From IMG/VR virus record IMGVR_UViG_3300029156_000001, positions 1 through 64,000 of that record: a stretch of 64,000 nucleotides of DNA; one strand, 5' to 3'. Shown piece by piece: positions 16,787 to 38,669 of this stretch. Made by a program: the position numbers and the translations under genes. Origin of the DNA: a virus. Lineage: Duplodnaviria > Heunggongvirae > Uroviricota > Caudoviricetes. Under the pieces are notes generated by a model. It was given only the letters and a program-made list of their open reading frames with translations, made no database searches and had not been told where the DNA came from. The first letter of the stretch is position 1. The number at the start of each line of letters is the position of its first letter.

Positions 16787-16802
16787 AGTGTTTGGTAGGG
16801 TA

Positions 16803-16881: not shown

Positions 16882-17326
16882 TTTTCAAGGCAATTGTGCC
16901 TTCGCGTACCCTAACACGATACCCATTATCGGTCCAGAAAGCACATTCGTCAACAGCGTCTTGGCGTCTGCCAATTGTGACCTGTAAGGCTTGCCAAGGC
17001 TCGTTGTCGGCATTGCGGCCCAGAATGATCCAGACGGGTTCGCTAGTCTCCACGGACTTCCCCTTCTATACGATCAAAGTCTTGCATGGCCGCATGAGCT
17101 TCGTAGTAGCCGTTATTGGTGCCGGGGCTGGTACTGGACTTTTTGATGGCCAATACAAGGTTGCTTAGGCCACGAAATACCCGAATCCATTGATCTCGTG
17201 AGAGCGAGAAGGGCTGTTCGGGTGTACTCGCAGGACCAGATTTGATCAGCCAGTCTTGGTTTTCGTCAGTCATACCCTACTATACCCCAGGAAGTGATGA
17301 TTGTCAAGCACTTCCTGGGGGTTGTT

Positions 17327-17404
17327 TGGTCGGAGCGGCTGGATTCGAACCAGCGTTCTGTAGCTTCCAAGGCCACCGAGGACTCCAGACTCCTCCACGC
17401 TCCG
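17327..17404 (-). tRNA. tRNA-Pro (anticodon UGG)
   Basis: C1-G72 as in bacterial tRNA-Pro, D-stem GAGG/CCTC, anticodon arm GTGGC-CTTGGAA-GCTAC, T-arm GCTGG-TTCGAAT-CCAGC, encoded CCA. Confidence 0.7.
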
Positions 17405-17412
17405 ATTGTGAT

Positions 17413-17501
17413 TGGCTCATGGACTAGGGTTTGCACCTAGGGTGGGGATTACTCCCGCGAGCTTAACAGGCTCGTGCCTTCGACTACTCGGCCATCCATG
17501 A
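17413..17501 (-). tRNA. type II tRNA with Tyr-like body but anticodon GUU
   Basis: 89 nt, acceptor TCATGGA/TCCATGA, D-arm GCC-GAGTAGTCGAA-GGC, anticodon arm CGAGC-CTGTTAA-GCTCG (E. coli tRNA-Tyr has CUGUAAA), long variable arm, T-arm CTAGG-TGCAAAC-CCTAG, encoded CCA. Confidence 0.5.
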
Positions 17502-17504
17502 ATA

Positions 17505-17579
17505 TGGCTGGGATACTACGACTCGAACGTAGAATACAAGAGTAACAATCTTGCGTGTTACCAATTACACCATATCCCA
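17505..17579 (-). tRNA. tRNA-Asn (anticodon GUU)
   Basis: U1-A72 as in E. coli tRNA-Asn, D-stem GTGT/ACAC, anticodon arm CAAGA-TTGTTAC-TCTTG, T-arm CTACG-TTCGAGT-CGTAG, encoded CCA. Confidence 0.65.
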
Positions 17580-17585
17580 ATGTTC

Positions 17586-17661
17586 TGGTTGCGGGACTGA
17601 GATTCGAACTCAGGTTGCCGGATTCAGAGTCCGGAGTATTGGGCCTCTATACTATCCCGCG
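17586..17661 (-). tRNA. tRNA-Gln (anticodon CUG) with unpaired C1xA72
   Basis: acceptor CGCGGGA/TCCCGCA, D-stem GTAT/ATAC, anticodon arm CCGGA-CTCTGAA-TCCGG, T-arm CTGAG-TTCGAAT-CTCAG, encoded CCA. Confidence 0.6.
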
Positions 17662-17750
17662 TTTCAAAAGACGCGACCACTCGCCACCCACCCCGGATTA
17701 CCTCCTACGGAGGAGAGCCGGGCCTAAGCCTTGTCCGTCGCGTCTTTGTT

Positions 17751-18011
17751 TTATCTATTTGCCTCGCGAAGAATGGCGTCTACTTCATCCATGTCTGGAC
17801 TACTTGTGTTATGCCAATAGAAGCACGTTCTACAACAGTAGGGACGAATACCCTCTCGACTATCGGCTTCTCGTGCCGCTTTGGCAGATTTATAAGCCCT
17901 CTTGCTGTAGCAACGTTTTTCAAGCCGTTCTTTTTTGAGTTGTCTTTTAGATTTCATTGTTTTGGTAGGCAATGAGGGTAACGATCCCCCGTCTTTGGTA
18001 TGTAACACCAA
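17751..18011 (-). CDS. hypothetical zinc-finger protein
   Basis: 86 aa, CC...C...H cluster near C-terminus (YCCRTCFYWH). Confidence 0.3.
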   Translation of the reverse strand: MVLHTKDGGSLPSLPTKTMKSKRQLKKERLEKRCYSKRAYKSAKAAREADSREGIRPYCCRTCFYWHNTSSPDMDEVDAILREANR

Positions 18012-18026
18012 TGTTCTTCCATTGAA

Positions 18027-18419
18027 CTAATCGCCCTCTTGTTCCGTCTTCGGAACATTGTCTGAATGCGGTGCTACCGCTTGCCACTGTACATCGTTAT
18101 AAGGATCTGACAAATCGTCACAGTAATGGGTTTGCTTGGAACGATTGAACGTTAAGCGTCCCTCTCGATGCAGTTTGCCTTTGTCAAATTTGAAACGCAG
18201 GCACGATTTGTAGCCCGCTTGAGTATTTGGCTCGAAAAAGATACGGACCGCTTCATATAGGTGGACCGGCGGAAAAACTAGGCCATCTTCCTCAAACGAA
18301 GGAATGGTAAATTTGATCCACCAATAACCTTCGCTGCCGGCACTGATCCACTGTTCATAAGTGGGAGGGTTGTTTTGCCACGTCATGCCACAGTATAGCA
18401 CTCGATGGTGGCATGTCAA
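18027..18419 (-). CDS. hypothetical protein
   Basis: 130 aa ORF in co-directional gene string. Confidence 0.35.
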   Translation of the reverse strand: MTCHHRVLYCGMTWQNNPPTYEQWISAGSEGYWWIKFTIPSFEEDGLVFPPVHLYEAVRIFFEPNTQAGYKSCLRFKFDKGKLHREGRLTFNRSKQTHYCDDLSDPYNDVQWQAVAPHSDNVPKTEQEGD

Positions 18420-18685
18420 GCTATGACTTCAAATTCTTCTAGAAGCCATACCTCATCATCAACCCATTCGGACCAACCATCGAAGAGAATCTCAATAGAC
18501 CAACGTTCTGGTCCGTTTTCCTTAATTCTCACTTGACAACCCTCATGTTGTCCTTGTGTCCTAAGGTCAGCCTGTAAATCTTGCTGGATAAATGCGATTG
18601 CTTTTTGCTTATCTAGATAGATATCAATATTTTGTGGTGAACAATCGACCGAATCCCACCCTCGTCTAACAAGATATACTTTCAT
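18416..18685 (-). CDS. hypothetical protein
   Basis: 89 aa ORF, start/stop coupled with neighbours. Confidence 0.3.
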   Translation of the reverse strand: MKVYLVRRGWDSVDCSPQNIDIYLDKQKAIAFIQQDLQADLRTQGQHEGCQVRIKENGPERWSIEILFDGWSEWVDDEVWLLEEFEVIA

Positions 18686-18945
18686 GAGATTCTAATCTTA
18701 ATTTTGCGATAAACACCACTTTTTGCTGTTAGGTGATGCAAATGCACAAGATTCAAATACTCAAGAAACTCCTGTTTGTTACGATAAACAATATGGGGAC
18801 ATTTTCCGCTTTTGTTTTTTAGTATCCATTGATCATTTTCTACGCAGACAATGTACTTCTCTTGAATTTCATCTTTGAGCACCCATGCGACATGATCACC
18901 TGGGTCTACATCGTAAATGAGTGGGCTGTTATCTAGTATTAGCAT
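18682..18945 (-). CDS. hypothetical protein
   Basis: 87 aa ORF, coupled. Confidence 0.3.
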   Translation of the reverse strand: MLILDNSPLIYDVDPGDHVAWVLKDEIQEKYIVCVENDQWILKNKSGKCPHIVYRNKQEFLEYLNLVHLHHLTAKSGVYRKIKIRIS

Positions 18946-19019
18946 ATTAATGTTTTGGAGCCGGTTCCCGGTACCGCCCCGGGGGCTAAAGCTTACAAGG
19001 CAATTGTTTTACTATTAAA

Positions 19020-19391
19020 CTAAACCGGCTTACGCCTAATGCGTTTGGCGTTTTTGTGTGATTTGAAAGCACGGCAAATACTGCATCTACAGCCACCATC
19101 ATACTTTCTATTTGTACCATGTTTTGCTGGTGGAATCTGACTAATGGTTTTAGCAAGATGACATGGGTGGCATAAAACTTGACACTTCGCAAGTTCTTTT
19201 TGTAGTCTCTTTTCGGACCAAGACCAAACTCTATGTTCTATTTTTTGACTAGGATCAATATGATCAACCTCTAGTCTTTTACTGGAGCCACACTTTACAC
19301 AAGGACCATTTTTCTCTAGCCAATCAGCACGTCGTCGAGCCACCATGAGACGCTGATATTCTCGTTGTTTATTTGGATCCTTGTATGGCAT
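19020..19391 (-). CDS. HNH endonuclease
   Basis: CVKCGS...EVDHIDPS...CHPCH motif. Confidence 0.7.
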   Translation of the reverse strand: MPYKDPNKQREYQRLMVARRRADWLEKNGPCVKCGSSKRLEVDHIDPSQKIEHRVWSWSEKRLQKELAKCQVLCHPCHLAKTISQIPPAKHGTNRKYDGGCRCSICRAFKSHKNAKRIRRKPV

Positions 19392-19623
19392 ATGGACTAA
19401 AAGACATCAGGCACTTTCCATGTATCTTTCCAAATTGGTGCTCGAAAAACACGATCTTCTTTTGTGTTGTGCCATGCTCCGCATGAACATGGGCCATCAT
19501 CAAGATCGCATTCTGATCCGTTACGTCTTTTCCATCCTGTGCGTTCGTCCGTTTCCCAATCGGTATCGAAGACCGCTTCTAGGTAACCATCTTCGCGATA
19601 TACACATCTGGTGATAGCCATAA

Positions 19624-19929
19624 CTATTTGTACAGCTTAAAGCTTTCGAAAAGTTCAGGCCACTCTTTACGGGGACAGAATGCGACCGCAACAGTTTCGT
19701 GACCAATGACGGATTCCGTGATGACAACGTGATTGTCCGCGTTAGACATAGCTTGTGCTAATTCTGCATCGTTTACGATACAGGTGACCTTCCTAAAGGA
19801 GTCCGCAAGCCATCGTTGCATATCTCGATGGCCCGCATACTTGAGAAAGCAAGCCACCGAGGCGTGAGCGACACCATTTATTGCATACCCAAGGGGTACG
19901 TCTTCTCGCACCAGAATATACATTTTCAT
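19624..19929 (-). CDS. peptidyl-tRNA hydrolase, PTH2 family
   Basis: KMYILVREDVxLGxxxxGVAHASVA aligns with PTH2 MxLVVRxDLxMGKGKxAAQCSHA; C-terminal ...FKLYK matches PTH2 C-terminus (...LKLY); ~100 aa size. Confidence 0.7.
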   Translation of the reverse strand: MKMYILVREDVPLGYAINGVAHASVACFLKYAGHRDMQRWLADSFRKVTCIVNDAELAQAMSNADNHVVITESVIGHETVAVAFCPRKEWPELFESFKLYK

Positions 19930-19941
19930 GTCGCTACTCTC

Positions 19942-20286
19942 CTAATTATTGTAAGCCTTACGGCCAAAAAGTCGTACTGCACGGTACATCATATGACGTT
20001 TAATTAAACCTACCCCCGACTCTTTCATGACACGTAAAAAGATGCCGTCTGCATCCTTGCGTGATACCTCATGTGAGGAATAGAGCCAATCATGTAGGAC
20101 TGCCGCCTTGGTATACTTGCCTGTGGGCGGCACAATGTTCCAGAATGCACGGGGCACACTGGCAAAGTCTGTTGTAAATGAAGCGGGAACAACAAAAGTA
20201 TCTCTAGCACCCTCGTACACGAGATCTTGCAGTAGTTCCCATCTGTCGTTTTTACCCTCTTTAACGTGAAGCTCTGTTACGAACAT
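19942..20286 (-). CDS. DUF1353-family phage protein
   Basis: TDFASVPR...W...P..G.Y..AAVLHDWLY pattern characteristic of DUF1353. Confidence 0.45.
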   Translation of the reverse strand: MFVTELHVKEGKNDRWELLQDLVYEGARDTFVVPASFTTDFASVPRAFWNIVPPTGKYTKAAVLHDWLYSSHEVSRKDADGIFLRVMKESGVGLIKRHMMYRAVRLFGRKAYNN

Positions 20287-20333
20287 ATTATCCCCCCTTT
20301 TTTATTAGGACCCATAAGATAATACGCTAAGAG

Positions 20334-20408
20334 TGGTACTCCGAGAGGGTATCGATCCCTCTTCTCCACCTTGAAAGGGTGGTATCCTAGCCAGTAGACG
20401 ACCGGAGC
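20334..20408 (-). tRNA. tRNA-Glu (anticodon UUC)
   Basis: acceptor GCTCCGG/TCGGAGT, anticodon arm CCACC-CTTTCAA-GGTGG, T-arm GAGGG-ATCGATA-CCCTC, encoded CCA. Confidence 0.6.
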
Positions 20409-20439
20409 TATCGGGCGGCGATGCCGCCCTCAAAGTTAT

Positions 20440-20517
20440 TGGTCTGCGGTGTGAGAATCGAACTCACCCGGAGAGATCAGGCCCCGACTCTCCCCTTAGG
20501 GAGTTCCCTGACCGCAG
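20440..20517 (-). tRNA. tRNA-like element with canonical acceptor/T-arm but unresolvable D/anticodon arms (possible pseudo-tRNA)
   Basis: acceptor CTGCGGT/ACCGCAG, T-arm GTGAG-TTCGATT-CTCAC, encoded CCA; interior contains GGAGAG...CTCTCC stem enclosing a 12-nt loop instead of a 7-nt anticodon loop. Confidence 0.35.
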
Positions 20518-20840
20518 TATTCTTCACGAAGCTCGCGAAGGGCAATTTTGTAGAGACGATAGTATTCGCTATCATCAGGTAGGCCGTGACGGTAATCCGA
20601 ACCACGAAGTTCGTGATATAGATTTAGGGCGGCGGTGATCTTGGGCTTCCTTCTTTGTGCCATGTTGGCCGCCCTAAAGGATTCCTTAAGCTTCACTCGT
20701 TGAGCAGTAGGAATGTCGCTCCAGCTAACGTCGCCCCAACTGGTGCGGGGGAACTTAGGAAGCGGACCAGTCTTACGTTCAGACTTTAGTTGTACTTGCT
20801 CGACTGCCAGATCTTTGATTAGTTGTTTCAATTCTCTCAT
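20496..20840 (-). CDS. hypothetical protein
   Basis: 114 aa ORF; 3' end overlaps the tRNA-like element. Confidence 0.3.
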   Translation of the reverse strand: MRELKQLIKDLAVEQVQLKSERKTGPLPKFPRTSWGDVSWSDIPTAQRVKLKESFRAANMAQRRKPKITAALNLYHELRGSDYRHGLPDDSEYYRLYKIALRELREEYCGQGTP

Positions 20841-20944
20841 ATCTATTCTCCATTTAAAGCGTTTACTTGAAATACAAAAACAGATATGGTGTCACGGTGG
20901 TCTATGTGTCTACGACATGATTTGCCTTTCGGGCAAAGAGTTGA

Positions 20945-21020
20945 TGGAGGGCACGGTGAGGTTCGAACTCACATCTTCCCGGTTTAGAGCCGGGTGCATT
21001 TCCACTAATGCTACGTGCCC
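20945..21020 (-). tRNA. amber suppressor tRNA (anticodon CUA), U73
   Basis: fully canonical 76-nt fold: acceptor GGGCACG/CGTGCCC, D-arm GCAT-TAGTGGAA-ATGC, anticodon arm CCCGG-CTCTAAA-CCGGG (U33, anticodon C-U-A, A37), T-arm GTGAG-TTCGAAC-CTCAC, encoded CCA. Confidence 0.65.
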
Positions 21021-21147
21021 CTACTCCCCGCTAACGGGGGAATTGTAAATGGCTGCCCTGGTTATGTTGCTTCCTTAGGAATTCAGATATCATGCAAGAA
21101 AACTGGCTACAGCCGCATTTGTTTCTGCCGCTTTTGCGGCAGTTGAG

Positions 21148-21223
21148 TGGTGGAAAGCTGGGGAATCGAACCCCACACACGGAGCTTGCAAAGCTCTGTC
21201 GCCTCCTTGGTACATGGCCCCCC
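21148..21223 (-). tRNA. tRNA-Ala (anticodon UGC), G3-U70
   Basis: acceptor GGGGGGC/GCTTTCC with G3-U70, anticodon arm (A)GAGC-TTTGCAA-GCTC(C), T-arm TGGGG-TTCGATT-CCCCA, ends CCACCA; D-arm poorly defined. Confidence 0.45.
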
Positions 21224-21234
21224 CATTATAAGCG

Positions 21235-21312
21235 AGTGACTAGGATTCGAACCTAGATCGTGAGCGTCAATAAGACTGGCCAGTCTGGGTGCTCATGTGT
21301 TACCGTTACACT
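21235..21312 (-). tRNA. tRNA-like element with expanded (~25 nt) anticodon-region loop; possible pseudogene
   Basis: T-arm CTAGG-TTCGAAT-CCTAG, D-arm GTGT-AACGGTA-ACAC, acceptor AGAGTGA/TCACTCG, no encoded CCA; TGAGC...GCTCA stem encloses 25 nt including palindrome AGACTGGCCAGTCT. Confidence 0.3.
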
Positions 21313-22664
21313 ATCACTCTATTCTCATATGTCTTTTACAGCATCTTCCGGAAGCTTCGTCTGTTTCTGTTACACTGACGTTGACATAATCGAAGTTCTA
21401 AAACTCGAAAAAGGTAGGACTTGCACCCACCAGCGGTTGTACGACCTATTTAGCTGCCTAATATTTTACGAGGACTCGAACCTCTTACCCTCCAAGGGAA
21501 TGCCGAATCGAACGGCTAACTGCTATTTTCATTTTCGAGCGTTTTGAAACGCAGGCACGACTGGAATCGAACCAGTATTTCCCTGCCGGGCGTACTATCC
21601 ATATTATACTACGTCTTAGTCCTGCGTTGAAAGATAGAGCATCTTGCGATCCCCTTCGTTTGTTTCGCTAGGATTCGCTGTAAATTCTTTCAAGGGCTTC
21701 CACACCCTCACCGGATCGTACGAACCCCGGCGGCTTCTACAACTATTACTATCCACAAACAAACTGAGGCTACGTCACACCTGTCGCAAGTTCACGTAGT
21801 CAGGTTCAGAAGGCATCGGCAATGTACTAGTCATTGCTTACTGAATTCATTTCCTTCGTCTGCCATACTCTATTGTACTATTGTAGGGGTTAAGGACTCC
21901 CTACGAGCCCCAATTTTGGTAACCACTGAAATTGGAAACGGGGCCGATTCACCTTTTTGGATCCACACTTTTATCTTGTCGGCAAAACCATTAGTGTTCT
22001 TAAATCTCGCACCGATCTAGTATAGGCAGCATTCCCGTGGTGACACACGGTCTCTTGCCACAACCTTAATCGTACGCTTCGGATGCGTCACCATCCATCC
22101 CTGTACTCGCTCATCCAGCTTCCGCAACGCTAGTGGATACCAGCCTTGCCGAAGGCAAGCTTTTCTCTATCCTGCGGCACACCCGAAGGCGACCGACTAA
22201 CAGCCTCAGCCCGGCCAAGAGCATAAGGTTTAATGTCCGGAGAACTCGGACAATACGTTCGCTTCGCTCACGAAGCGTTGATTTTGCGGGTTATGGGCCT
22301 CCCGCCAGCCACCTAAGAGTAACCGTCCGCTTTGACGTAACGAGACAGCAAGCGTAGCCGTCTCCCTCTTTCGGTCGTTCGATTTTGGAGCAAAAGCTCC
22401 AAGGAATATATCGTGCCGGTAGCTAAGCGGCAGCCGGTGATCGCTAATACAGGCCAAGTTTCCATCGATGTTTCCATCGTGTACTGACAAGCTGGTGGCT
22501 GGACGATACGTCCCTTACAGCAGCGGACGCTGAGCGTCTCCGCTGCCGTAGAGGTGATCCCGAGTTGTCGGATGGCATCGCTGCCAGAGCCCGAGGTATT
22601 GCCGCCTCACGATCCCCTGCGAAAAGCAGGCTAGACCCGGCTCGTCACGTCACCGCGACAGGAC

Positions 22665-22770: not shown

Positions 22771-23250
22771 CTAATCTATATCTTTCCACCTTCGTCTGTG
22801 GATGATATGGGCTACCATTGTCTTAGAAATGCCAAACAGTACAGCAATCTTCATCTGGGACATACCATCGGAGGCAGATTGTCGGATTGCGATAACGTCC
22901 TTAATCGTCAGTTTTGCCCTCATTTGTGGGGCACGTCCTTTATCCATCATATCACGGATATTGGTCTTTTGGGTGCCCTGAAACAAATGATCTGGTCGTA
23001 CGCACCTTCGATTATCGCACTCGTGTAAAATATATTGATCGTCTAAGGTGCCATACGTAAGTCGCCAGGACATACGATGGGCACCGATTGTGCCTTCTGA
23101 TCTGCGACCAAGTGCAAACCACCCATAGCCATTTGGATAAAGTGCTCCGGTCCACTCCCAACATTGAGTAGACATATTGCTATCTACACCAAATATACCA
23201 GAGTGTTTATTGACCTTGGCCCAAAAACGATCTTCGATTGATTTTTTCAT
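22771..23250 (-). CDS. HNH homing endonuclease (HNH_3 family with C-terminal HTH)
   Basis: CWEWTG...AHRMSW...HxCDNRRCVRPDHLFQGTQKTN motif; paralog of the 2986-3477 endonuclease. Confidence 0.8.
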   Translation of the reverse strand: MKKSIEDRFWAKVNKHSGIFGVDSNMSTQCWEWTGALYPNGYGWFALGRRSEGTIGAHRMSWRLTYGTLDDQYILHECDNRRCVRPDHLFQGTQKTNIRDMMDKGRAPQMRAKLTIKDVIAIRQSASDGMSQMKIAVLFGISKTMVAHIIHRRRWKDID

Positions 23251-24165: not shown

Positions 24166-26115
24166 TTAGGATCCCAATTCGTTTTTCATTTTGATGTATT
24201 CAAGTACATCTTTAAGGTCTGCGTATCGTAGGTTGATGTTACTGATCAGCGGATACCGCTGTCGGAAAAGGTCAAGGTAGTCCGGAGCTTCCGGAAGTGT
24301 CAGATCGAATCGTTGCAGTAACGTACGCCACTCATGCGGCGGCTGCTCCGTCCGTAGGAAGGCCACGACGTTCGTGCATGTTTCTGACAGACCGTCGATT
24401 CCATTAAGAAAACTACTCTCGTAAGGATTATAACTATCGTGATGCCATACGGCCCGGGTCATGTCGTTAGCTGTGGTGACGAAGGTTTCCATCGCTTTAC
24501 GGGCCAGCACTTCAAGGTCTTTCAGACCAAGGCCGTCTCGTAGTTTTTCATAGCGATTCATCGGCAGTCCGTACACCGTCTCGATACCAATGCTGGCAGC
24601 GATACGCTGAGCTTCGGAGGGATCCATATGAACCCCCATGAAAACAACATGGTATCCTCTACGTTGGACGCATGCTGCCTTGGTAGTGGTCACGTTGGCT
24701 TCGTCAACGTTTGTCCACTTCTCAGACATGCGACGAGCCCAGCCGTCACCAATTTGCTTAATGTAGGTACGGTTGCCACCGTTAGAGCCGCCGCCTCCGT
24801 TATTGCGGGGTGCTTGAGGAATTTCCGTTAGCTTGATCGCGGGCTCGCCCAGCATTTTAGCAAAGCGTGCTGCGTTTTCGATGGTGGCAAGATAGACAAT
24901 CGTGCCTCGCTCTTGGTTACGGATCCAGTGTCGCAGGTTGTTCTTAAGTCCTTGCCTAATGCTGCCGGGTTCTTCCACGTCGCATTCAACGAATGCATAT
25001 TGCGAACCCGAGTAAGGACGCAGATGACTCTCGAAACGGTCCTGCCCAACAAAAAGCTTATCTCCGCGAAGCTCCGCTTTACGAAGAGTGTAGACGCCTT
25101 CGCGTGCAGTCGGTAGCGAATTGACCGTAGCAGAAAAGTTAAGTAGGTTGCCAAATTGCTTAAGGGCAATCAAACGCTCCAGTAGGCTATTGCAATGTCC
25201 AAGCGAAGATTGAATTTTCTTGTTGACAATCTCCTGAGCTTCATTAATACGTTTTTGAATAGCGGCCACAGTGGCCTTATCGTATTGGAGTTCTTCTCGG
25301 CTCACGGCAGGCTGACACTCACCCACGGGCACGTACAGCACAAGCTCCGCAGATCGACCAAGCTTGTGTTCAATTTTGTTTTCTGAAACAGCGTAACACA
25401 CCTTGCCCATGACGACGCTGATTTTTCCAGCGGCATTCGCATCGCCATCGTAGATGGCCCAACCGTCACCCTCGTAGACCGGCTCTGCCTCTTCTTCGAA
25501 TTCAACACGGGCACCCGTGAAATTCGGCTTGACAGGGAAAAACCGGAAAACACTTTCGGCGTTACGTTGGAATTCGTATTGATCCCCAGGTCGCGTATCG
25601 AGACGAACCTCAAGGCCATCGGGCTCGTCAGTGGATTGCGTATTGACCAAAGCAATGGTCGGCTCACCCGTTTCGGCTTTAAATGCTGAATATGTACGAG
25701 CTTCGCCATTCAGATAAGCGACAACCGTAAACATATCGGTATAGGCAAAGGGCGATTTCGAGCCCAGGCCAAAGCCACCAGTCGCTTCTTCGGATTCACG
25801 ATTGATAGATTCGAAGTAAACGGTGTAAACATTGAGGATGGCGTCGTGATCGAGGCTCGGTCCGAAGTCGCGGATCGCGAACCAGGGCTCCATCGAGTTC
25901 GGAAGATGAACGTCGAAAGGCACGTCGGCCTTGCCGACCGCGATGTGGGCGTCTGCCGCGTTGGTGGAAAGTTCGCGGACGATGGCAAGCCTGGGATCCG
26001 TATAGAGCCCGTCGGACAGGATTTGGAACGCCTGGACGTTCGCTGCGATCCGGAAGGTTTGCTCCGGAAAGTCGCCTGAACGCTTAATGTCGCGTTTCTG
26101 AGAGGTGAGTTTCAT
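24166..26115 (-). CDS. rIIA: rIIA-like protein (HATPase_c N-terminal domain)
   Basis: N-terminus FRIAANVQAFQILSDGLYTDPRLAIVRELSTNAADAH aligns with T4 rIIA [37 protein letters not shown]; 649 aa. Confidence 0.6.
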   Translation of the reverse strand: MKLTSQKRDIKRSGDFPEQTFRIAANVQAFQILSDGLYTDPRLAIVRELSTNAADAHIAVGKADVPFDVHLPNSMEPWFAIRDFGPSLDHDAILNVYTVYFESINRESEEATGGFGLGSKSPFAYTDMFTVVAYLNGEARTYSAFKAETGEPTIALVNTQSTDEPDGLEVRLDTRPGDQYEFQRNAESVFRFFPVKPNFTGARVEFEEEAEPVYEGDGWAIYDGDANAAGKISVVMGKVCYAVSENKIEHKLGRSAELVLYVPVGECQPAVSREELQYDKATVAAIQKRINEAQEIVNKKIQSSLGHCNSLLERLIALKQFGNLLNFSATVNSLPTAREGVYTLRKAELRGDKLFVGQDRFESHLRPYSGSQYAFVECDVEEPGSIRQGLKNNLRHWIRNQERGTIVYLATIENAARFAKMLGEPAIKLTEIPQAPRNNGGGGSNGGNRTYIKQIGDGWARRMSEKWTNVDEANVTTTKAACVQRRGYHVVFMGVHMDPSEAQRIAASIGIETVYGLPMNRYEKLRDGLGLKDLEVLARKAMETFVTTANDMTRAVWHHDSYNPYESSFLNGIDGLSETCTNVVAFLRTEQPPHEWRTLLQRFDLTLPEAPDYLDLFRQRYPLISNINLRYADLKDVLEYIKMKNELGS

Positions 26116-26220
26116 GGTTTCCTTGTTGTTGTGCCCCCTTCATCGAGGACACCACATTATACGCCCTATCGGACATATGTCAAGCCGGGGCAAGTAAAAA
26201 CTCACCCCGGCTTGGATTGA

Positions 26221-27228
26221 TCAGTCTCGCTCAGGCGTGGGCATTTGCATAAGCAGCCCACCATTGAGCCCTTCGGAGCCACCCATAAACCATTGCGGGT
26301 ATTCTCCGTTCCACTGGTCCGCAAGTCGCATCTGGAGTTCGATCCTTTTCATTTCCAGAAACACGGGGTTGCTTTGAGCTTCCGCAGTAGCTTCGTTGAT
26401 GGACCGCAGGCCGTCCGCTTCACCTTGAGCGATCGTGCGTGCTTTTTCAGCAAAGGCCAAAGCTTCTTGTTCGATCTGAGCGTTCTTGTCGGTCTGTGCC
26501 TCTAGCAGAGCGGCGGCAACCACCTTCTCTTGCTGAGCCACGAACGTTGCGTTGATCGACTCTTGGATCTGAGGGTCTTCGTAGGTGAAGCCACCGAACA
26601 TACCGACAGTCGTAATGGTGATGCCGTACTGCTCAAAGAACGGAATGGTATCTGCCCTAATAGCCTCGATGATCTCGGTCTTTTCGGTACGCAAAAGATC
26701 CATGTTGGATCGTGCGGCCCTGTCGGCGGCAACCGCCTGGATGCGGGCACGAACCTCGGTATCCATAACGTCTGCCAGCGAACGGGCACGATACTGATAC
26801 AGGAATCTCGACGTATCTGCTTCCTCAACCTTGCCGGTTGCAGTAAACCCTACCGAGAAGCCGATGGAATCTTTGGACTCAATCCAGATAGCTTCATCCC
26901 TATCTGCGTTGGTGCCACCTTCGGCAACCCATTCACGAGTCACGGGGGTACGGTCAACAGTGATTACGCGAATCTGAGGCATGTACTCGCCAGTCAGATA
27001 AACGTAACCAGTTTTCACCCAGCGGTGCGGCACCTGGATCCGCTTGGTCGCAACCTTGCGGGTCTCAAGATACTCTTCCGAATCGAAGGAAACTTGATCA
27101 GCGTTATTGCTATCTAGCGGAATAACGTAAGCAGTCTCGGAGTTTTCGATAGTCTCGAACACCTGAGGCATGTACGGACGACAACTAGTAAGGCCAATAA
27201 TGACCAAGAGCGGCAGTAGGAATTTCAT
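26221..27228 (-). CDS. SPFH/band-7 domain lipoprotein
   Basis: signal peptide with LTSC lipobox; central SPFH-like region and Ala/Glu-rich coiled coil (EQEALAFAEKARTIAQGEADGLRSINEATAEAQ). Confidence 0.55.
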   Translation of the reverse strand: MKFLLPLLVIIGLTSCRPYMPQVFETIENSETAYVIPLDSNNADQVSFDSEEYLETRKVATKRIQVPHRWVKTGYVYLTGEYMPQIRVITVDRTPVTREWVAEGGTNADRDEAIWIESKDSIGFSVGFTATGKVEEADTSRFLYQYRARSLADVMDTEVRARIQAVAADRAARSNMDLLRTEKTEIIEAIRADTIPFFEQYGITITTVGMFGGFTYEDPQIQESINATFVAQQEKVVAAALLEAQTDKNAQIEQEALAFAEKARTIAQGEADGLRSINEATAEAQSNPVFLEMKRIELQMRLADQWNGEYPQWFMGGSEGLNGGLLMQMPTPERD

Positions 27229-27473
27229 GATGTGGTAATGGCCCTTTTGATAGCTCGGCCATAAAAAGCGAAAGTAGTGAGTAGAACGGCCACGGCACTA
27301 TAGATAGGCGTATTGGACCGAAGGGTCTGATTCAGGAACATGGAAGTGGACTCTTGAGAGCCGCCATTGACTTGTCGCATCGCGGCGTCGATCGCTTGGC
27401 TGGGATCAGCCTGCACGAAGAATGCCACGGCAATGATCGCCAGGACGACCAAGGTAAATAGAAAGTGTTTCAT
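27225..27473 (-). CDS. small two-TM membrane protein
   Basis: 82 aa, two hydrophobic helices; coupled between SPFH gene and Thg1-like gene. Confidence 0.4.
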   Translation of the reverse strand: MKHFLFTLVVLAIIAVAFFVQADPSQAIDAAMRQVNGGSQESTSMFLNQTLRSNTPIYSAVAVLLTTFAFYGRAIKRAITTS

Positions 27474-28147
27474 TGAGTGAATGTCTCGATGTAATCTCGT
27501 TGTTGGGTGAAGATGGGAATGTTCCTATCTACCCTTTTCCCTTTTTCAAGCACACAAAAACCACGCTTAAAATGCGTGGGTGTATCATTCCAGTTGGTAC
27601 CTTCTGCCATTAGCATATCTTGTAGATCGCTACAGGACTTATCCTGGCACTCTCGATGGCTGAAATTGGCACGGGCTACCATCTGAACAGAATTGCGAGT
27701 AGCATCCTGCTGTCTCCAAATGAAGTAGTTGGCCACCTCCTCACGAGGGAGGTTAAAGATACGGGCGTCGAATTGTGCCAATGGTTTCACCATTGGATTG
27801 CCTGCTCTCTTGTCTGCCGTTAGCATATACCTATTAAATGCGTTGGTTGACACCGATGCAGCAATTGATACCATTTTCTGAATATTGCCACCGAACCACG
27901 CCTGGGTATCAAGTGTATCATAATCAGTAATTAGAATAGAGATCTCGTCACTTTGACCATAGGCCAGTTTCGCACCTTGAATCTCTTGCATCAAAGAGGT
28001 TGCCGTCGCGACCATTGTATTGTGTAATGTCTGATCGAATGGCGTATCAAACCCACGAGTGTACGAGTGGAACGCTCGCCCATCGACACGTAGAATCGCA
28101 GGCATCCTACGTACGAGGGAGTGCTTCCACACGCCCTCGTACGTTTT
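27470..28147 (-). CDS. Thg1-like protein (tRNA-His guanylyltransferase family 3'-5' nucleotidyltransferase)
   Basis: ILRVDGRAFHxYTRGF...PFDxxLHNTM...LAYGQSDEISIL closely matches Thg1 VVVRLDGRNFHRF...AYGQSDEYSFVF; start placed at MKTYEG (28147) to abut the upstream gene stop. Confidence 0.75.
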   Translation of the reverse strand, partial: KTYEGVWKHSLVRRMPAILRVDGRAFHSYTRGFDTPFDQTLHNTMVATATSLMQEIQGAKLAYGQSDEISILITDYDTLDTQAWFGGNIQKMVSIAASVSTNAFNRYMLTADKRAGNPMVKPLAQFDARIFNLPREEVANYFIWRQQDATRNSVQMVARANFSHRECQDKSCSDLQDMLMAEGTNWNDTPTHFKRGFCVLEKGKRVDRNIPIFTQQRDYIETFTQ

Positions 28148-28158
28148 CATTCTGTCAC

Positions 28159-28869
28159 CTAAGCTTGTTCGGTCCATGCTTTGTCTCCAGTCCAGATGAT
28201 GTAGGTATAACTCTCGACAATCGGGCAGCAGTACCACTTGGTTCTACCCACAGTCCCCTGGTCGAAAGCATGATGGTGTCCGAAGAACCAATGCTTTGGT
28301 CTAAAGTGTTCACGGAGAGCTTCGAGCGATCGTTTGTCTCCTATGCCGAAGATTTCGTCACCATGACGTTCATCAGAATAGGGCACAGTATAAGGATGCT
28401 CGTGACTAAAGATTGCGTGAATGTCACCCTCGGTTTCGAGAGCGGCCATCACTTCACCATATTTAATGGTTTCTTGTGGCCACCAGCTTTTACCCTCGAT
28501 CCTATATGCCTTATCAATAGAGGAGGCACCACCGAAGAACATCATGCGGTATCCGTCCACTTCGAGGACGGAACCGCGTGGCATGTACGTCCAGCCGGGT
28601 TGCCACGCTCCACCGTCTTTTTCAAGCTGATCGAAATTCTCGTGGTTACCATCAAGCCAAAGCTTTTCGACCGCATGGTAGCGGTCGAGGAGATCGCCAG
28701 TGAAGAAGCCGCGACTGGCCTTGAAGGGTTTAGTGCCGGGCCAACCATACGAAAAGTCTCCCACCTGGACAATATGCGTAATGTCCGAGTGTTGACGCAT
28801 GGCTTTTGCAATCATGCGATTCAACGCATGCCACGATCCATGCACATCACCAATAATGAGAAACTTCAT
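28159..28869 (-). CDS. metallophosphoesterase (calcineurin-like phosphoesterase)
   Basis: GDVHG...VGDFxxxG...GNHE motifs in order. Confidence 0.7.
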   Translation of the reverse strand: MKFLIIGDVHGSWHALNRMIAKAMRQHSDITHIVQVGDFSYGWPGTKPFKASRGFFTGDLLDRYHAVEKLWLDGNHENFDQLEKDGGAWQPGWTYMPRGSVLEVDGYRMMFFGGASSIDKAYRIEGKSWWPQETIKYGEVMAALETEGDIHAIFSHEHPYTVPYSDERHGDEIFGIGDKRSLEALREHFRPKHWFFGHHHAFDQGTVGRTKWYCCPIVESYTYIIWTGDKAWTEQA

Positions 28870-29262
28870 TTAGAAAACTTGATTCAGTGATTCGGGCAGG
28901 GTTTTGATAAGGGCAGGAAAGGGTACTCGGTAAACGAATCCGTAAGCTGTTTTCAGGTCTCTCTCCATAGCCTCGGCGGCTGGAGTGTTCATGGAGTGAA
29001 TAACGATATCGGGATCTTCAACGAACCCTACGTTTTTCAGCATCCATCGAACGACTCCACTTCCGGTATTCTCGTTCGAAGGGTCCACGTAAGTCTCGCC
29101 GCCAAGGTCGTGATCCAGAAACACAACATCGTATTTCTGCATAGTGAGACACTGAATCGCTAGGCGAGCAGTCTTCACGATTTCAACGATACACCTTTCG
29201 CCAATCTTTTCGTTAAAGGCATCGATGCGTCGTTGGTCGTCTTCTAGAATCAGGATTCTCAT
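28870..29262 (-). CDS. stand-alone response-regulator receiver (REC/CheY-like) domain protein
   Basis: MRILILEDD ... DVVFLDHDLGG ... receiver-domain acidic pocket and conserved positions; ORF track N-terminal extension (29502) is low-complexity and overlaps another ORF, so start set at internal Met. Confidence 0.5.
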   Translation of the reverse strand: MRILILEDDQRRIDAFNEKIGERCIVEIVKTARLAIQCLTMQKYDVVFLDHDLGGETYVDPSNENTGSGVVRWMLKNVGFVEDPDIVIHSMNTPAAEAMERDLKTAYGFVYRVPFPALIKTLPESLNQVF

Positions 29263-29528
29263 ATCGTGGCTATCGTCATAATTGCGACGATAAGTGTAAG
29301 GACCCGCCAGGACACTGTGACTGTATAGTCTTTTTTGAGAGGTTCGATTGGCCCCGGCGGGTTGTTTTCTTGCATTTGAAGAAAGGCACGAGCCTTCCTT
29401 AGAGCGACGATCTGTCCCTTGTGATGCTCCACCGTTGGCTGGTGTAGTTTCTGTGGTCCTTCGTCGGCTCGGACGACCGCCTCGGCACGGGCGACCTCGC
29501 AATCGATCCAGTTGAGTACCGTTTTCAA
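29259..29528 (-). CDS. small membrane protein
   Basis: 89 aa, C-terminal TM helix VLTLIVAIMTIATI; ATGA start/stop overlap with REC gene. Confidence 0.3.
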   Translation of the reverse strand: MKTVLNWIDCEVARAEAVVRADEGPQKLHQPTVEHHKGQIVALRKARAFLQMQENNPPGPIEPLKKDYTVTVSWRVLTLIVAIMTIATI

Positions 29529-29794
29529 GACTCTTCTACGATAATGTCAATCCACGTTACATTCTTGGGATTGATACCTTGGGGGCGACCATCAACGAAG
29601 AGGCTCATTGTTTCCAGTTTGCCTACGTCCGCGAAGACACTGATGGCTTGCTGTATGGCTTCCTCAAGTTGAGCCTGATCAATGCTCGGATCTTCCTTTT
29701 GGGCTTCCTCAAGCATTTTCTGGCGACTTTGCTTATCGGAAGTGAGCGACGTACCGCCCGCGAAGTGAACAACGAATTGTAGTGATTCGATCAT
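29525..29794 (-). CDS. hypothetical protein
   Basis: 89 aa acidic ORF, coupled. Confidence 0.3.
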   Translation of the reverse strand: MIESLQFVVHFAGGTSLTSDKQSRQKMLEEAQKEDPSIDQAQLEEAIQQAISVFADVGKLETMSLFVDGRPQGINPKNVTWIDIIVEES

Positions 29795-29826
29795 AGTGCC
29801 TTATTATACCTCCGTGACGGCGGAAG

Positions 29827-30018
29827 TCAAGTCTTCTTCGGGTAATCGTTGCAATGGAAGCCCTCGCCACGGAAGATAATGCCCCCAAGGCGACTAATTT
29901 GCTTTACAAGCTTGAGTGCTCCGCACTCAGGACACTTACGTTTAGCACCCTCGGTGATCTTTTGCACGAATTCGCATTTGTGATCGCATTTACTACAACG
30001 ATATTCGTAGGTGGGCAT
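29827..30018 (-). CDS. FmdB-family zinc-ribbon protein
   Basis: MPTYEYRCxxCxHxxE...CPECG pattern diagnostic of FmdB/putative regulatory zinc ribbon. Confidence 0.55.
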   Translation of the reverse strand: MPTYEYRCSKCDHKCEFVQKITEGAKRKCPECGALKLVKQISRLGGIIFRGEGFHCNDYPKKT

Positions 30019-35391: not shown

Positions 35392-36480
35392 ATGATCAAG
35401 GGATTTTTCAACCCCCGCACCGAAGGCGACACGTTCAAGGGTCTCGGTCTTGCGATGGGCATGGATGGCACCGTCGCGGACGCCATTCACCGTGACCTCT
35501 ACGGTTTCCTCAAGGCCGCAGGCCGAGACTACCACATCAAGAAAGTTCCGGCTTTCGACTGGTCCCCTGTCGGAGCGATGGATGCCGAGTCGGGCGAGAT
35601 GGTCCCCGGGGCCATCGAGGTCGAGAACCAGTATCACCTTCGCCGGTCGCACGATCACCGGATCGTGAGCCCCGGCACCGTCACCGATTCCTACGCTCCG
35701 CTGTCCCTCATGGACGTGGCCGAGGAGATCGCCCCCTGGGTCCAGGCCGGATGGGCTACCCCGGATGCCGTGTTCGAAGCCCGCAACGGCTCGCTCGAAG
35801 TCCTGGTCCTGCGTCTCGATGCGGGTATGGACGCGAACGAACTCCGCGATGGTGACTTCTATGTTCACTACATCGTGATTCAGAACCCGCACGGTCGGGG
35901 TGGCAAGGCCCGGGGCAAGATCATCAGCTTCCGGATCGTCTGTGCCAACACGTTCGCCGCCGCCGTTTCGGCCGCGAGTGACTTCACGATCACGCACCGG
36001 GTTGCGAAGGGCGATCCGGAGGAGCAAGCCGCGATCATGCAGGAGCGGACGAAGGAAGCGGTCGCTGCGTGGGAAAAGGTCCAGGCTCACATCGCTGACC
36101 TTGCCAAGCGGATCAACGTTTGGGCCGATGCCACGATCACTTTCGCGGACGCGGAGCACCTCACCGATCAACTTCTTGGCCTTGCCGACGGTGGGACGAA
36201 AACTCTCGCGGGCAAGGATGCCAGCGGACAAGCGAAGAACGATCGCGAGGCCGTCCTCGCCGCCTACGCCATGCCGCAGTACGGCACCAACGGGGCCACC
36301 GTTTACGATTGGATCAACGGTGTCACCTTCGTCAATTCCAGCCCGAACTCGGATCGGGTCAAGGGGTCCAAGGTCTCGATGATCGACCGGGTGGTCCGTA
36401 ACGTGGACCCGAACGGTACCGGCCTCAAGGTCGAGGTCAAGGCCCAGAAGGTTGTCGATGCCTTCCTCGGGGCCAAGTGA
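35392..36480 (+). CDS. hypothetical protein, possibly DUF932/TIGR03299 phage-plasmid-like family, in GC-rich island
   Basis: AGGAG RBS 8 nt upstream; 362 aa; ~65% GC versus ~50% elsewhere; family assignment from memory only. Confidence 0.4.
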   Translation: MIKGFFNPRTEGDTFKGLGLAMGMDGTVADAIHRDLYGFLKAAGRDYHIKKVPAFDWSPVGAMDAESGEMVPGAIEVENQYHLRRSHDHRIVSPGTVTDSYAPLSLMDVAEEIAPWVQAGWATPDAVFEARNGSLEVLVLRLDAGMDANELRDGDFYVHYIVIQNPHGRGGKARGKIISFRIVCANTFAAAVSAASDFTITHRVAKGDPEEQAAIMQERTKEAVAAWEKVQAHIADLAKRINVWADATITFADAEHLTDQLLGLADGGTKTLAGKDASGQAKNDREAVLAAYAMPQYGTNGATVYDWINGVTFVNSSPNSDRVKGSKVSMIDRVVRNVDPNGTGLKVEVKAQKVVDAFLGAK

Positions 36481-36501
36481 TAACACTCTCCGGGGTCGAG
36501 G

Positions 36502-36530
36502 TTGACAAACCTCGGCCCTGGAGGTATGTT
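36502..36530 (+). promoter_or_regulatory. sigma70-type promoter (TTGACA-17-TATGTT)
   Basis: gttgacaaacctcggccctggaggtatgtt immediately upstream of 36536 ORF. Confidence 0.45.
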
Positions 36531-36535
36531 ACATC

Positions 36536-36769
36536 ATGGCTCGCCATACTATCGGTAATCGGCGGGGTTCCGTTCGCGGTGCTCCCCCCGATGTCTACAT
36601 GGGCTTCATGGATGCGTCCGCTGGAGCCGAGGACGAGAAAGCTATCTGGGAGCCCGTGTTTCGCCTCCTCCGAAGTTGGGGAGGGTTCGCGGTCGCCTGG
36701 GTCCTGTTCTACTTTTTCATGGCAATTTTGTGGGCAATCGGTCTACTACCGGACGAGTTCGCAGGTTGA
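36536..36769 (+). CDS. small membrane protein
   Basis: 77 aa, C-terminal TM helix FAVAWVLFYFFMAILWAIGLL. Confidence 0.4.
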   Translation: MARHTIGNRRGSVRGAPPDVYMGFMDASAGAEDEKAIWEPVFRLLRSWGGFAVAWVLFYFFMAILWAIGLLPDEFAG

Positions 36770-36787
36770 GATAACCCGAGGGGCCGC

Positions 36788-36816
36788 TTGACAAAGGCGG
36801 CCCCTCGGTGTATACT
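36788..36816 (+). promoter_or_regulatory. sigma70-type promoter (TTGACA-17-TATACT) embedded in hairpin GAGGGGCCGC...GCGGCCCCTC
   Basis: cttgacaaaggcggcccctcggtgtatact; the -35 lies in the loop of a GC hairpin (terminator/promoter overlap). Confidence 0.45.
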
Positions 36817-36825
36817 AGAAGCGTT

Positions 36826-37047
36826 ATGAAGCTCGTCCCGAAAACCCGCAAGGGTAAGAACAAGATCGCTGAGGCGGGCACCGACCGCTGGCACGTCGTC
36901 GGCACGGCCGATAGCGTACAATGCCTTGGGAATCGTCCCGGCCTTTTGATCCGTCCGACGTTAGAACATCAGCCGCAACCCGATAAGCGGCGTTGGATTC
37001 TGGCCCAAAATGATCCTGATTTTGAGCTTGTCTGGGGAGAGGATTGA
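36826..37047 (+). CDS. hypothetical protein
   Basis: MKLVPKTRKGKNK... ATG 10 nt after -10; ORF track lists longer 36808 start. Confidence 0.35.
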   Translation: MKLVPKTRKGKNKIAEAGTDRWHVVGTADSVQCLGNRPGLLIRPTLEHQPQPDKRRWILAQNDPDFELVWGED

Positions 37048-37061
37048 GGGTATACTAAGCC

Positions 37062-37433
37062 ATGACCACTTATCGAATCAACTGGACGGATCGCACCGGC
37101 TACTACACCGAGATCGACGCCGATTCTCCCGAGGAGGCCCTGGAGTATTTCAACGATGGTCTCGACGGCGATGGCATCGAGCCCGACGGCTTCGCGGAAA
37201 GCGAGCCAGGCAGCATCGAGATCGCTCCGCTAGATAGTAACGGGGAGCCGATGGATCCGATCCCGCAGCCCCGTACCTTCGCGGCTCTCTTGTCGCTGCT
37301 TTGCTTGCATTGTCCCGAGGGGACGATGGGGGAGGACCTCGACGGGCAACTGGTATTCTATACCGGTCTAAAAGAAACGACCGACAGAAACGTCGAGGCT
37401 TTCAAACCTGAGGACGAGGACGAGAATCCCTAA
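37062..37433 (+). CDS. hypothetical acidic protein
   Basis: 123 aa, Asp/Glu-rich; preceded by GGTATACT -10. Confidence 0.4.
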   Translation: MTTYRINWTDRTGYYTEIDADSPEEALEYFNDGLDGDGIEPDGFAESEPGSIEIAPLDSNGEPMDPIPQPRTFAALLSLLCLHCPEGTMGEDLDGQLVFYTGLKETTDRNVEAFKPEDEDENP

Positions 37434-37636
37434 AAAAGTAGGAGTCTCAGAATAAGTAGTTACAGGGAGAGAGGGCGACCCTCTCCCCCTGGGGGCGGAA
37501 AACAATTCCCCTGCCATAATGGCATACGAAAATTCTTCCGGCTGCCAATTTGGCGTCCCGCCGGAAGGTACTCTCCAACGGTAACAGTATAGCTCCCTTT
37601 GGCCACTTGTCAAGCTGAAAAACATTTGGATTTTTC

Positions 37637-37665
37637 GTTTGCATTTCTCGCTCCGCGTGGTATAA
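37637..37665 (+). promoter_or_regulatory. early-promoter module TTGCATTTCT-N-TGGTATAAT
   Basis: tttgcatttctcgctccgcgtggtataat; member of reiterated promoter family. Confidence 0.5.
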
Positions 37666-37671
37666 TCTGGC

Positions 37672-38322
37672 ATGAAACGAACGATCAAAGCACTCACGGA
37701 AGCGGTCGGGGGGCTCTCGAATCCCTCGAAAATGCCCGGCCTTTCCTACGGTATCCCTGCCGCCGCCTGCCCCGTGGGGGCGATCTTGCGACGGAACCCG
37801 GATAGCGTATGCGGATCCTGCTACGCTCACGGGGGCATGTACAATTTTCCGGTCGTGAAAGCGGCCCTTGCTCGCCGCCTGGAAATTCTTTCCGCCGACC
37901 TCGACCAATGGCGTCGGGATATGACGGAACTTCTTTCCCGGAAGTACGCCCGCAAGGCTGGCGATGCGAAAGTTTTTCGCTGGCACGATAGCGGTGACCT
38001 CCAGGGTGCGGAACATCTTTCGGTCATCGTCCAGATCGCGAAAGATCTTCCCGATGTCCGGTTCTGGCTCCCCACGAAGGAATATCGTACCGTGCGGGAA
38101 TGGGTGCGGACGAATGGGGAATTTCCTTCCAACCTCACGGTACGGATTTCGGCCCCGATGATCGGAGCGGAAAGCATTTCCAGTATTCCGGGAACGGTCG
38201 GGTCTACCGTGAACACCGGAACGGGTTTCCAATGCCCCGCCTACTCCCAAGGGGGAGAGTGCAAAAATTGCCGAGCGTGCTGGAGTCAGGAAAACGTTTC
38301 AGTAAACTACCCCTTGCATTAG
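37672..38322 (+). CDS. hypothetical Cys-rich protein (KMPGLSYG...CPVG...CGSCYAHGG)
   Basis: 216 aa; conserved-looking Cys cluster; no confident family assignment. Confidence 0.45.
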   Translation: MKRTIKALTEAVGGLSNPSKMPGLSYGIPAAACPVGAILRRNPDSVCGSCYAHGGMYNFPVVKAALARRLEILSADLDQWRRDMTELLSRKYARKAGDAKVFRWHDSGDLQGAEHLSVIVQIAKDLPDVRFWLPTKEYRTVREWVRTNGEFPSNLTVRISAPMIGAESISSIPGTVGSTVNTGTGFQCPAYSQGGECKNCRACWSQENVSVNYPLH

Positions 38323-38542
38323 CGGCGGGACAGGGTATACTATCACGGTCGAAGGGCCACGAGGACCCGAGACCGTAGAATCGAGACCCGCTAGCGTCGA
38401 AACGCGGGGGACACCGATAGGCTCCAATCGTCCGAAACAAGGGGTGGCCGTGCGGGGTCTATATATGGCAAGCCGGAACCGCATTTTTCGGCTGCCGTTT
38501 CTCTGACGCCCTGAGAGACCGCAGGACGAGGGTGGCCCAAAC

Positions 38543-38601: not shown

Positions 38602-38633
38602 ATATGACAAATGCAATTTCAAGCATTCTCCGC

Positions 38634-38661: not shown

Positions 38662-38669
38662 GTAGTGCA

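Follow-up and report, generated by a model that had tools for sequence, protein, structure and literature searches.

The gene considered here encodes a Thg1-like protein (TLP), a predicted 3'-5' nucleotidyltransferase, and lies on a 64 000 nt stretch of DNA (the window) from a tailed phage of the class Caudoviricetes, IMG/VR record IMGVR_UViG_3300029156_000001. The window is part of a 105-kb JGI metagenome contig (3300029169, Ga0168037_100002), window position x being record position x + 8671, and the rIIA/rIIB, terminase and structural genes on that contig mark it as a phage. The TLP is of the bacterial type and has an intact active site, it is encoded in a tightly packed gene string and it shares its contig with many RNA-repair genes. 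Its best-supported role, and probably its actual one, is the templated repair of tRNAs that have lost nucleotides from their 5' ends.

27470–28177, minus strand: TLP gene, 235 aa; bacterial type, 3'-5' nucleotidyltransferase family

The longest open reading frame (ORF) for the TLP, at 27470–28237 on the minus strand, begins with GTG and would give a protein of 255 aa. Judged from the sequence, translation almost certainly begins with the ATG at 28177, which yields 235 aa, because this codon is preceded by GGAG at a distance of 7 nt, is also picked by a metagenome gene caller and gives a product whose alignment to BtTLP, the nearest characterized relative, starts at residue 5. A first, sequence-only reading of this DNA had put the gene at 27470–28147; its stop stands, while its start falls on a Lys codon right after an internal Met, about 10 codons short. 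The two motifs that it quoted are both found in the protein, RVDGRAFH at residues 30–37 and AYGQSDEIS at residues 72–80.

A bacterial-type TLP

The Thg1-like identity given in that reading is borne out by profile searches. The Pfam model PF04446 matches the protein with 109.3 bits (cut-off 29.2; E 1.7e-31), and the match covers profile positions 2–130 of 130; PHROG 4717, 'tRNA-His guanylyltransferase', matches the whole protein at 6.6e-91. The Pfam model of the Thg1 C-terminal region, PF14413, gave no match at E<=0.01, and no NCBIfam model matched the TLP or the cREC and RlaP proteins described below. Among solved structures, the top match is BtTLP (4KGK/4KGM; 1.5e-67, full length, approximately 50 % identity), with archaeal MaTLP at 3e-13 and the yeast, Candida and human Thg1 proteins at 1e-12 to 6e-10. 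An AlphaFold2 model (pLDDT 85.7, pTM 0.86) predicts a polymerase-like palm with the Thg1 C-terminal region. When this model was searched with Foldseek, all 32 significant PDB matches were Thg1 or TLP structures, with a TM-score of 0.85 to 4kgm.

The catalytic carboxylates are present as D32, D77 and E78, equivalent to D30/D75/E76 of BtTLP and D29/D76/E77 of human Thg1, and they are invariant in 24 relatives. In BtTLP, for which the numbering and residue roles used here come from PMC3701042, D30 and D75 bind metal and E76 is the third carboxylate. Residues R28, E12, H35, S74, K99, R131 and R147 of the BtTLP nucleoside triphosphate (NTP)/triphosphate site correspond to R30, E14, H37, S76, K101, R139 and R155 of the phage protein, all invariant in the alignment of the 24 relatives. 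Catalytic competence is the best explanation of the sequence. The anticodon-reading motif of the eukaryotic enzymes, HINNLYN, is not found in the TLP, whose residues at that position read QDATRNS; the segment aligned to the HINNLYN region is WRQQDATRNSVQM, in which Met166 matches M158 of BtTLP (Met, not Asn). With HINNLYN missing and Met at this site, the sequence places the protein among bacterial-type TLPs rather than true tRNA-His guanylyltransferases.

A departure from BtTLP occurs at K43, the residue that positions ATP for 5' adenylylation, which is Thr45 in the phage protein (codon 28043–28045, minus strand). The equivalent residue is Lys or Arg in 17 of the 24 relatives and Thr, Val or Glu in the six closest, the phage's own clade. 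Since a K43A change in BtTLP lowers adenylylation approximately 10-fold and leaves guanylylation unchanged (PMC3701042), Thr45 counts as variation and not as a loss of function; the clade that carries it may prefer GTP for 5' activation.

The gene string

The TLP gene belongs to a string of genes on one strand that abut or overlap one another and encode, in order, a Zn-ribbon protein, two 89-aa ORFs, a protein with a cyclic-phosphate-processing receiver-like (cREC) domain, a metallophosphoesterase (MPE), the TLP, an 82-aa membrane protein and an SPFH lipoprotein.

29803–29830, minus strand: putative promoter, an 11/12 sigma-70-like match, upstream of the string with cREC, MPE and TLP; from a consensus scan only
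28870–29262, minus strand: cREC domain protein, 130 aa; Pfam PF20274 cREC_REC, 3.4e-15; gene call
28159–28869, minus strand: MPE, 236 aa; Pfam Metallophos, 1.3e-13
27225–27473, minus strand: 82-aa predicted membrane protein, whose gene shares 4 nt with the TLP gene at the TLP stop; in the ORF list and among the gene calls
26221–27228, minus strand: SPFH/Band 7 lipoprotein, last in the packed string; Pfam Band_7, 6.4e-08; PHROG 200 lipoprotein, 6.9e-20

The arrangement looks co-transcribed: the cREC stop codon abuts the MPE start, and the MPE gene, upstream of the TLP gene, shares 19 nt with the start of the latter. The 82-aa membrane protein, for which there is no significant Pfam or PHROG family, is probably co-transcribed with the TLP as well. 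The sequence-only reading had the TLP between a metallophosphoesterase and an SPFH lipoprotein within the tRNA island. The first neighbour is as described; the second is near, with the gene for the 82-aa protein intervening. The island is the loosest part of that description, since rIIA and rIIB, which come after the SPFH gene behind a perfect sigma-70-like promoter match (consensus scan), separate the TLP string from a tRNA array that lies 6 kb downstream.

The cREC domain was defined in a survey of jumbo-phage RNA-repair genes (PMC7824862) and has been tied both to RNA repair and to NAD+/ADP-ribose (ADPr) systems (PMC7824862, PMC9503650). A single-sequence PDB search with the MPE found nothing, and it was by means of a family profile only that Dbr1 (4peh) was reached, at 3.7e-12 over the full length; the PDB family that ranked second came in at 1.9e-4. 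Dbr1 also provides the top Foldseek matches (E 5.8e-10) to the AlphaFold2 model of the MPE (pLDDT 96.1), the fold margin over generic metallophosphoesterases being small (TMq 0.68 vs ~0.6). By profile and model, the closest match of the MPE thus appears to be Dbr1, the enzyme that debranches RNA lariats, and the MPE is likely to be an RNA or nucleotide phosphodiesterase for end healing. Its family is a narrow one of 258 homologues, many of which are on contigs equal in size to TLP-bearing contigs.

RNA-repair genes elsewhere on the contig

The rest of the window holds a series of genes for RNA repair and tRNA rescue, as follows.

883–2142, minus strand: CCA-adding/repair enzyme with an HD domain, 419 aa; Pfam PolyA_pol, PolyA_pol_RNAbd and HD
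2522–3004, minus strand: P-loop kinase, polynucleotide-kinase-like, 160 aa; Pfam AAA_33; PHROG 505 polynucleotide kinase, 1.6e-12
4751–5899, minus strand: ATP-dependent RNA ligase of the DRB0094 type, 382 aa; Pfam PF09414; NCBIfam TIGR02306, 6.3e-46, above cut-off
6902–7441, minus strand: HAD 'Swiss-army-knife' RNA-repair phosphatase; Pfam HAD_SAK_2
19624–19929, minus strand: PTH2 peptidyl-tRNA hydrolase; Pfam PF01981
51710–52885, minus strand: RlaP, RNA-ligase-associated Pol-beta nucleotidyltransferase; Pfam PF10127

The CCA enzyme matches the NCBIfam model 'multifunctional CCA addition/repair protein' at 2e-113, with 379 bits, which is below the curated cut-off of 451. The polynucleotide kinase (PNK)-like protein could make the 5'-phosphate on which a TLP depends. 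A second RNA ligase, of the Rnl1 type, is encoded just left of the window, and a SpoU methylase is also encoded on the contig. On the strength of these family matches, the contig comes close to having a full set of genes for the repair and rescue of tRNAs; RNA ligase, polynucleotide kinase, end-healing phosphoesterases, CCA enzyme and tRNA genes, the set described in PMC7824862, are all on the contig that bears the TLP.

Some other features of the contig are recorded here for completeness. Two HNH_3 homing-endonuclease-like genes are found on the minus strand, at 22771–23250 and 2986–3477; one of them separates rIIB from the tRNA array, at a place where relatives have tRNA-Gly and tRNA-Tyr genes, and both of these tRNA genes are missing from this phage's array. 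Beside the CCA-adding enzyme, left of the window (contig record about 9160–9441), a 93-aa protein matches Pfam PF26761 (Acb5), which, from the family name alone, we presume may be an anti-CBASS factor. Positions 36001–44000 of the window have a G+C content of 0.55–0.58, vs 0.47–0.51 in the remaining window, and most of their genes belong to no family, with DUF932, GP88 and SprT-like among the few matches; this segment may be a module of different origin.

TLP genes in other phages

From its sequence, the phage appears to be without a close cultured relative: its terminase is 24–26 % identical to that of any GenBank phage, and a megablast of positions 26000–30000 against GenBank phages gave no match, so that no annotation could be transferred from a close relative. 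An identical TLP is encoded on a contig of 168,763 bp, and homologues are known from many phages. They occur in 164 of 50,697 GenBank phage records (tblastn), where most are labelled 'tRNA-His guanylyltransferase' and all are <60 % identical to the TLP (best 52 %, Stenotrophomonas phage CM1), and on at least 566 IMG/VR viral contigs (pattern scan). In 23 of 67 non-redundant IMG/VR TLP loci, a homologue of an RNA-repair protein of this phage is encoded within 6 kb (tblastn), the neighbours being the MPE (6), CCA enzyme (5), RlaP (5), RNA ligase (5), HAD_SAK (3), AAA_33 kinase (2) and cREC (1). Metallophos is the commonest Pfam family near TLPs, with 8 matches among 150 neighbour proteins, an enrichment that is suggestive only, as the census covered 150 of 212 neighbour proteins and was made without a background control. 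The operon of Rhizobium phage RHph_I1_18 reads CCA-nucleotidyltransferase, DUF1127, TLP, RNA ligase A and PNK, beside tRNAs.

The three closest relatives (65–69 % identity) keep cREC, MPE and TLP upstream of rIIA/rIIB. In two of them, L087 (1971–6023) and L089 (1917–6023), genes for a NUDIX protein, a small ORF, a NAMPT/NAPRTase and a 332- or 388-aa protein lie between MPE and TLP; the last of these overlaps the TLP start, and its product has no Pfam or PHROG match. In the relative L088 (2535–4028), a gene for a Ro60/TROVE protein is located upstream of cREC.

The tRNA genes

6183–21320, minus strand: tRNA array, 24 ARAGORN calls plus one Rfam-only tRNA-Thr; possible substrates

There are 26 tRNAs in the window, 25 called by ARAGORN and one by Rfam. 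The standard 1:72 pair is present in 23 of them, and the exceptions are Gln-CUG (C1.A72), an initiator-like Met (C1.U72) and a tRNA-like gene at 21232–21320 (A1.G72). Bacterial initiator tRNAs are known to carry a mismatch at 1:72, and C1.A72 in Gln-CUG is probably a normal feature too. The sequence-only reading had suggested looking for tRNAs with mismatched 5' ends, and the array presents no general problem of this kind. Systematic 5' editing of the phage tRNAs was rejected, because only these two tRNAs and one odd gene deviate. Every ordinary tRNA of the array encodes its CCA, which suggests that the CCA-adding enzyme serves repair rather than maturation.

The odd gene (21232–21320, minus strand) matches the Rfam tRNA model with 45.9 bits and has a 25-nt 'anticodon loop' with an extra 5-bp hairpin. 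Its discriminator is C, it is the sole array member without an encoded CCA, the ARAGORN label Leu(CAG) is unconvincing, and no copy of it was found in related loci. The tRNA-Thr(UGU) at 18956–19029 (minus strand; Rfam 43.9 bits), missed by ARAGORN, has two U.U mismatches in its anticodon stem and an unusual T-loop, GGCGGUA. Two further array members are unusual. A tRNA at 20945–21020 (minus strand), called 'Pyl' by ARAGORN, has a CUA anticodon and is of the amber-suppressor type. Another, at 17413–17501 (minus strand), is 89 nt long and combines an Asn (GUU) anticodon with a long variable arm like that of type II tRNAs; it sits 3 nt from an ordinary 75-nt tRNA-Asn(GUU).

These data bear on two alternatives for the TLP. 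One is that it matures or edits the phage's own tRNAs, either by mending mis-cut 5' ends within the array or by correcting encoded mismatches as in protist mitochondria. The array is dense, with spacers of 3–8 nt between some tRNAs, the odd gene has the A1.G72 mismatch and lacks CCA, some other phage TLPs abut tRNA arrays, and DdiTLP3 is known to carry out editing of this sort (PMC6471195). However, the pairing at 1:72 leaves no systematic 5' mismatches to correct, and tRNA genes lie within 6 kb of the TLP in 14 of 57 IMG/VR loci but not in the other 43. We therefore regard this role as unlikely.

The other alternative is the one embodied in the standard PHROGs and GenBank annotation, namely that the TLP is a guanylyltransferase adding G-1 to tRNA-His, whether that of the host or one encoded by the phage outside the region read. 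BtTLP does add G-1 opposite C73 in vitro, and it weakly complements a yeast thg1 mutant (PMC3061083). Yet neither the window tRNAs nor the flanks (ARAGORN and Rfam; record 1657–81851, 80 kb of the contig) include a tRNA-His, no tRNA-His adjoins the TLP in any of 60 other loci scanned, and HINNLYN is missing from the protein. Moreover, bacteria encode G-1 in the genome, and in kinetic terms BtTLP favours truncated tRNAs whatever their identity (PMC3061083). The G-1 role, which the sequence-only reading had offered as one of two possibilities, is thus without support at this locus, and there is little chance that it is the natural one.

Probable templated repair of truncated tRNAs

The role that is favoured is templated 5' repair, and the reasons are the likeness to BtTLP, the lack of tRNA-His in the 80 kb read, the lack of any sign that the tRNAs need 5' editing and the RNA-repair gene content of the contig. 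BtTLP prefers 5'-truncated tRNAs of any identity and makes its additions in a templated manner (PMC3061083). With this nearest characterized relative and the accompanying kit, the proposal of the sequence-only reading that 5'-end tRNA repair forms part of the phage programme gains support as an inference, and in our judgement it is probably correct. The TLP would bind a tRNA that lacks one or a few nucleotides of its 5' acceptor strand, would activate the 5'-monophosphate with a purine NTP or use a 5'-triphosphate directly, and would then add the missing nucleotides in the 3'-to-5' direction, with the intact 3' acceptor strand as the Watson–Crick template. It would be one tool in a kit with which the tRNAs of host and phage alike are kept in working order while the infection runs, probably in the face of host nucleases. 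Besides the TLP, this kit would comprise the cREC and MPE end-cleaners encoded next door, the PNK-like kinase, the two RNA ligases, the HAD phosphatase, RlaP, the CCA enzyme and PTH2; the kinase would supply 5'-phosphates, while the phosphoesterases, ligases and CCA enzyme would handle other lesions. The tRNA substrate, the source of the damage, the benefit against host defence and any coupling with cREC and MPE are all parts of this model, and each is put forward conditionally.

Several considerations weigh against such a role. To our knowledge, no host nuclease trims the 5' acceptor strands of tRNAs in phage defence. In 44 of the 67 IMG/VR TLP loci, single-sequence tblastn detected no recognizable RNA-repair neighbour, and the linkage to RNA repair is for that reason recurrent and not general. 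With Thr45 at the ATP-positioning K43 site, and Thr, Val or Glu there across the clade, the activation chemistry may differ from that of BtTLP. The cREC–MPE pair may serve NAD+/ADPr metabolism instead of the TLP, since in L087 and L089 it sits with NUDIX and NAMPT genes. No published assay of a phage TLP was found in the literature, and bacterial TLPs as a group are without a known physiological substrate (PMC6471195).

A more specific version of templated repair would make cREC, the Dbr1-like MPE and the TLP a single cassette that reverses one specific form of host attack, directed at tRNA acceptor stems on their 5' side. Removal of an aberrant end or linkage would fall to the phosphoesterases and rebuilding of the strand to the TLP, with GTP rather than ATP for activation. 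We consider this version a long shot.

It is similarly improbable that the TLP acts with the MPE on RNA other than tRNA, for instance by rebuilding or extending 5' ends once a 2'-5' or otherwise aberrant linkage has been taken out, or by processing a phage non-coding RNA. The overlap of the two genes and the resemblance of the MPE to a lariat debranching enzyme are what recommend the idea. Members of the MPE family and TLP homologues also occur repeatedly on equal-sized contigs, including ones of 1.9 kb and 3.2 kb, DdiTLP4 has substrates other than tRNA (PMC6471195), and L088 encodes its Ro60/TROVE protein nearby. Against this, the Dbr1 fold margin is narrow, no candidate substrate was identified, and four genes separate MPE from TLP in two of the three close relatives. 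Finally, the suggestion that the TLP makes a small nucleotide product, as a signal or decoy, draws on its distant fold relation to the palm domains of GGDEF and Cas10/mCpol cyclases (Foldseek ranks 33–46; PMC2904730) and on a neighbourhood rich in nucleotide and NAD+ conflict genes, but was rejected as highly improbable given the weak fold scores of the cyclases (E > 0.02, insignificant; TM about 0.3), the approximately 50 % identity to a characterized tRNA-repair enzyme and the retention of every tRNA/NTP-site residue.

Relation to characterized enzymes and earlier work

The phage TLP resembles BtTLP in fold, carboxylates, NTP-site residues, the Met at M158 and the lack of HINNLYN; it differs in being phage-encoded, in its place within a cREC–MPE string and in the change of K43 to Thr45, and it is known here from sequence and a model. 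With the eukaryotic Thg1 proteins of yeast, human and Candida (3OTB, 3WBZ, 5XOX), it shares a superfamily, a two-metal palm active site and, by prediction, the 3'-5' addition chemistry of the family, at approximately 20–23 % identity. Because it has neither HINNLYN nor Asn161/158, the non-templated, tRNA-His-specific addition of G-1 is not to be expected of it. Compared with DdiTLP3 and 5' editing in Dictyostelium mitochondria, the likeness would lie in a TLP-type, templated rebuilding of the 5' acceptor strand across many tRNA species (PMC6471195); that system, however, needs genome-encoded 5' mismatches, which the phage tRNAs lack apart from one odd exception.

Among phages, the genes of PHROG 4717 belong to the same family, e.g. 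those of Pseudomonas phage 201phi2-1, Bacillus phage G, Caulobacter CcrColossus and Rhizobium phage RHph_I1_18. Other phage TLPs are likewise recurrently linked to CCA enzymes, RNA ligases, PNK and tRNAs, whereas the immediate cREC–MPE–TLP arrangement is specific to the present lineage. Anantharaman, Iyer and Aravind noted Thg1 in phage 201phi2-1 in 2010, suggesting RNA repair versus host defences, and described bacterial neighbourhoods of Thg1, PNK, Macro and RNA ligase genes (PMC2904730). Iyer et al. (2021) included Thg1 among the RNA-repair genes that jumbo phages carry sporadically (PMC7824862), and Iyer et al. (2022) mentioned that calcineurin-like phosphoesterases occasionally accompany cREC in the RNA-repair neighbourhoods of phages (PMC9503650). 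Viruses go unmentioned in a 2019 review of the Thg1/TLP family. In view of the 164 GenBank phages, the at least 566 IMG/VR contigs and the papers of 2010 and 2021, a phage TLP is not new; homologues are commonly annotated, and a role in RNA repair was put forward as early as 2010. Two features are mildly new, namely the lineage-specific arrangement of cREC, Dbr1-like MPE and TLP and the lost ATP-positioning lysine.

Significance

This locus is one more well-contextualized example of a phage TLP, from a lineage without a cultured relative, and it leaves existing beliefs unchanged. Should the cassette of cREC, MPE and TLP prove true, a bacterial-type TLP would for the first time have a physiological role, and a new class of tRNA-targeting defence would be indicated. 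Bacterial-type TLPs are striking reverse polymerases, and phages in which a TLP is accompanied by a large tRNA array, ligases, end-healing enzymes and a CCA enzyme are good places to seek its natural substrate, as well as being suited to finding a host nuclease that damages the 5' ends of tRNAs.

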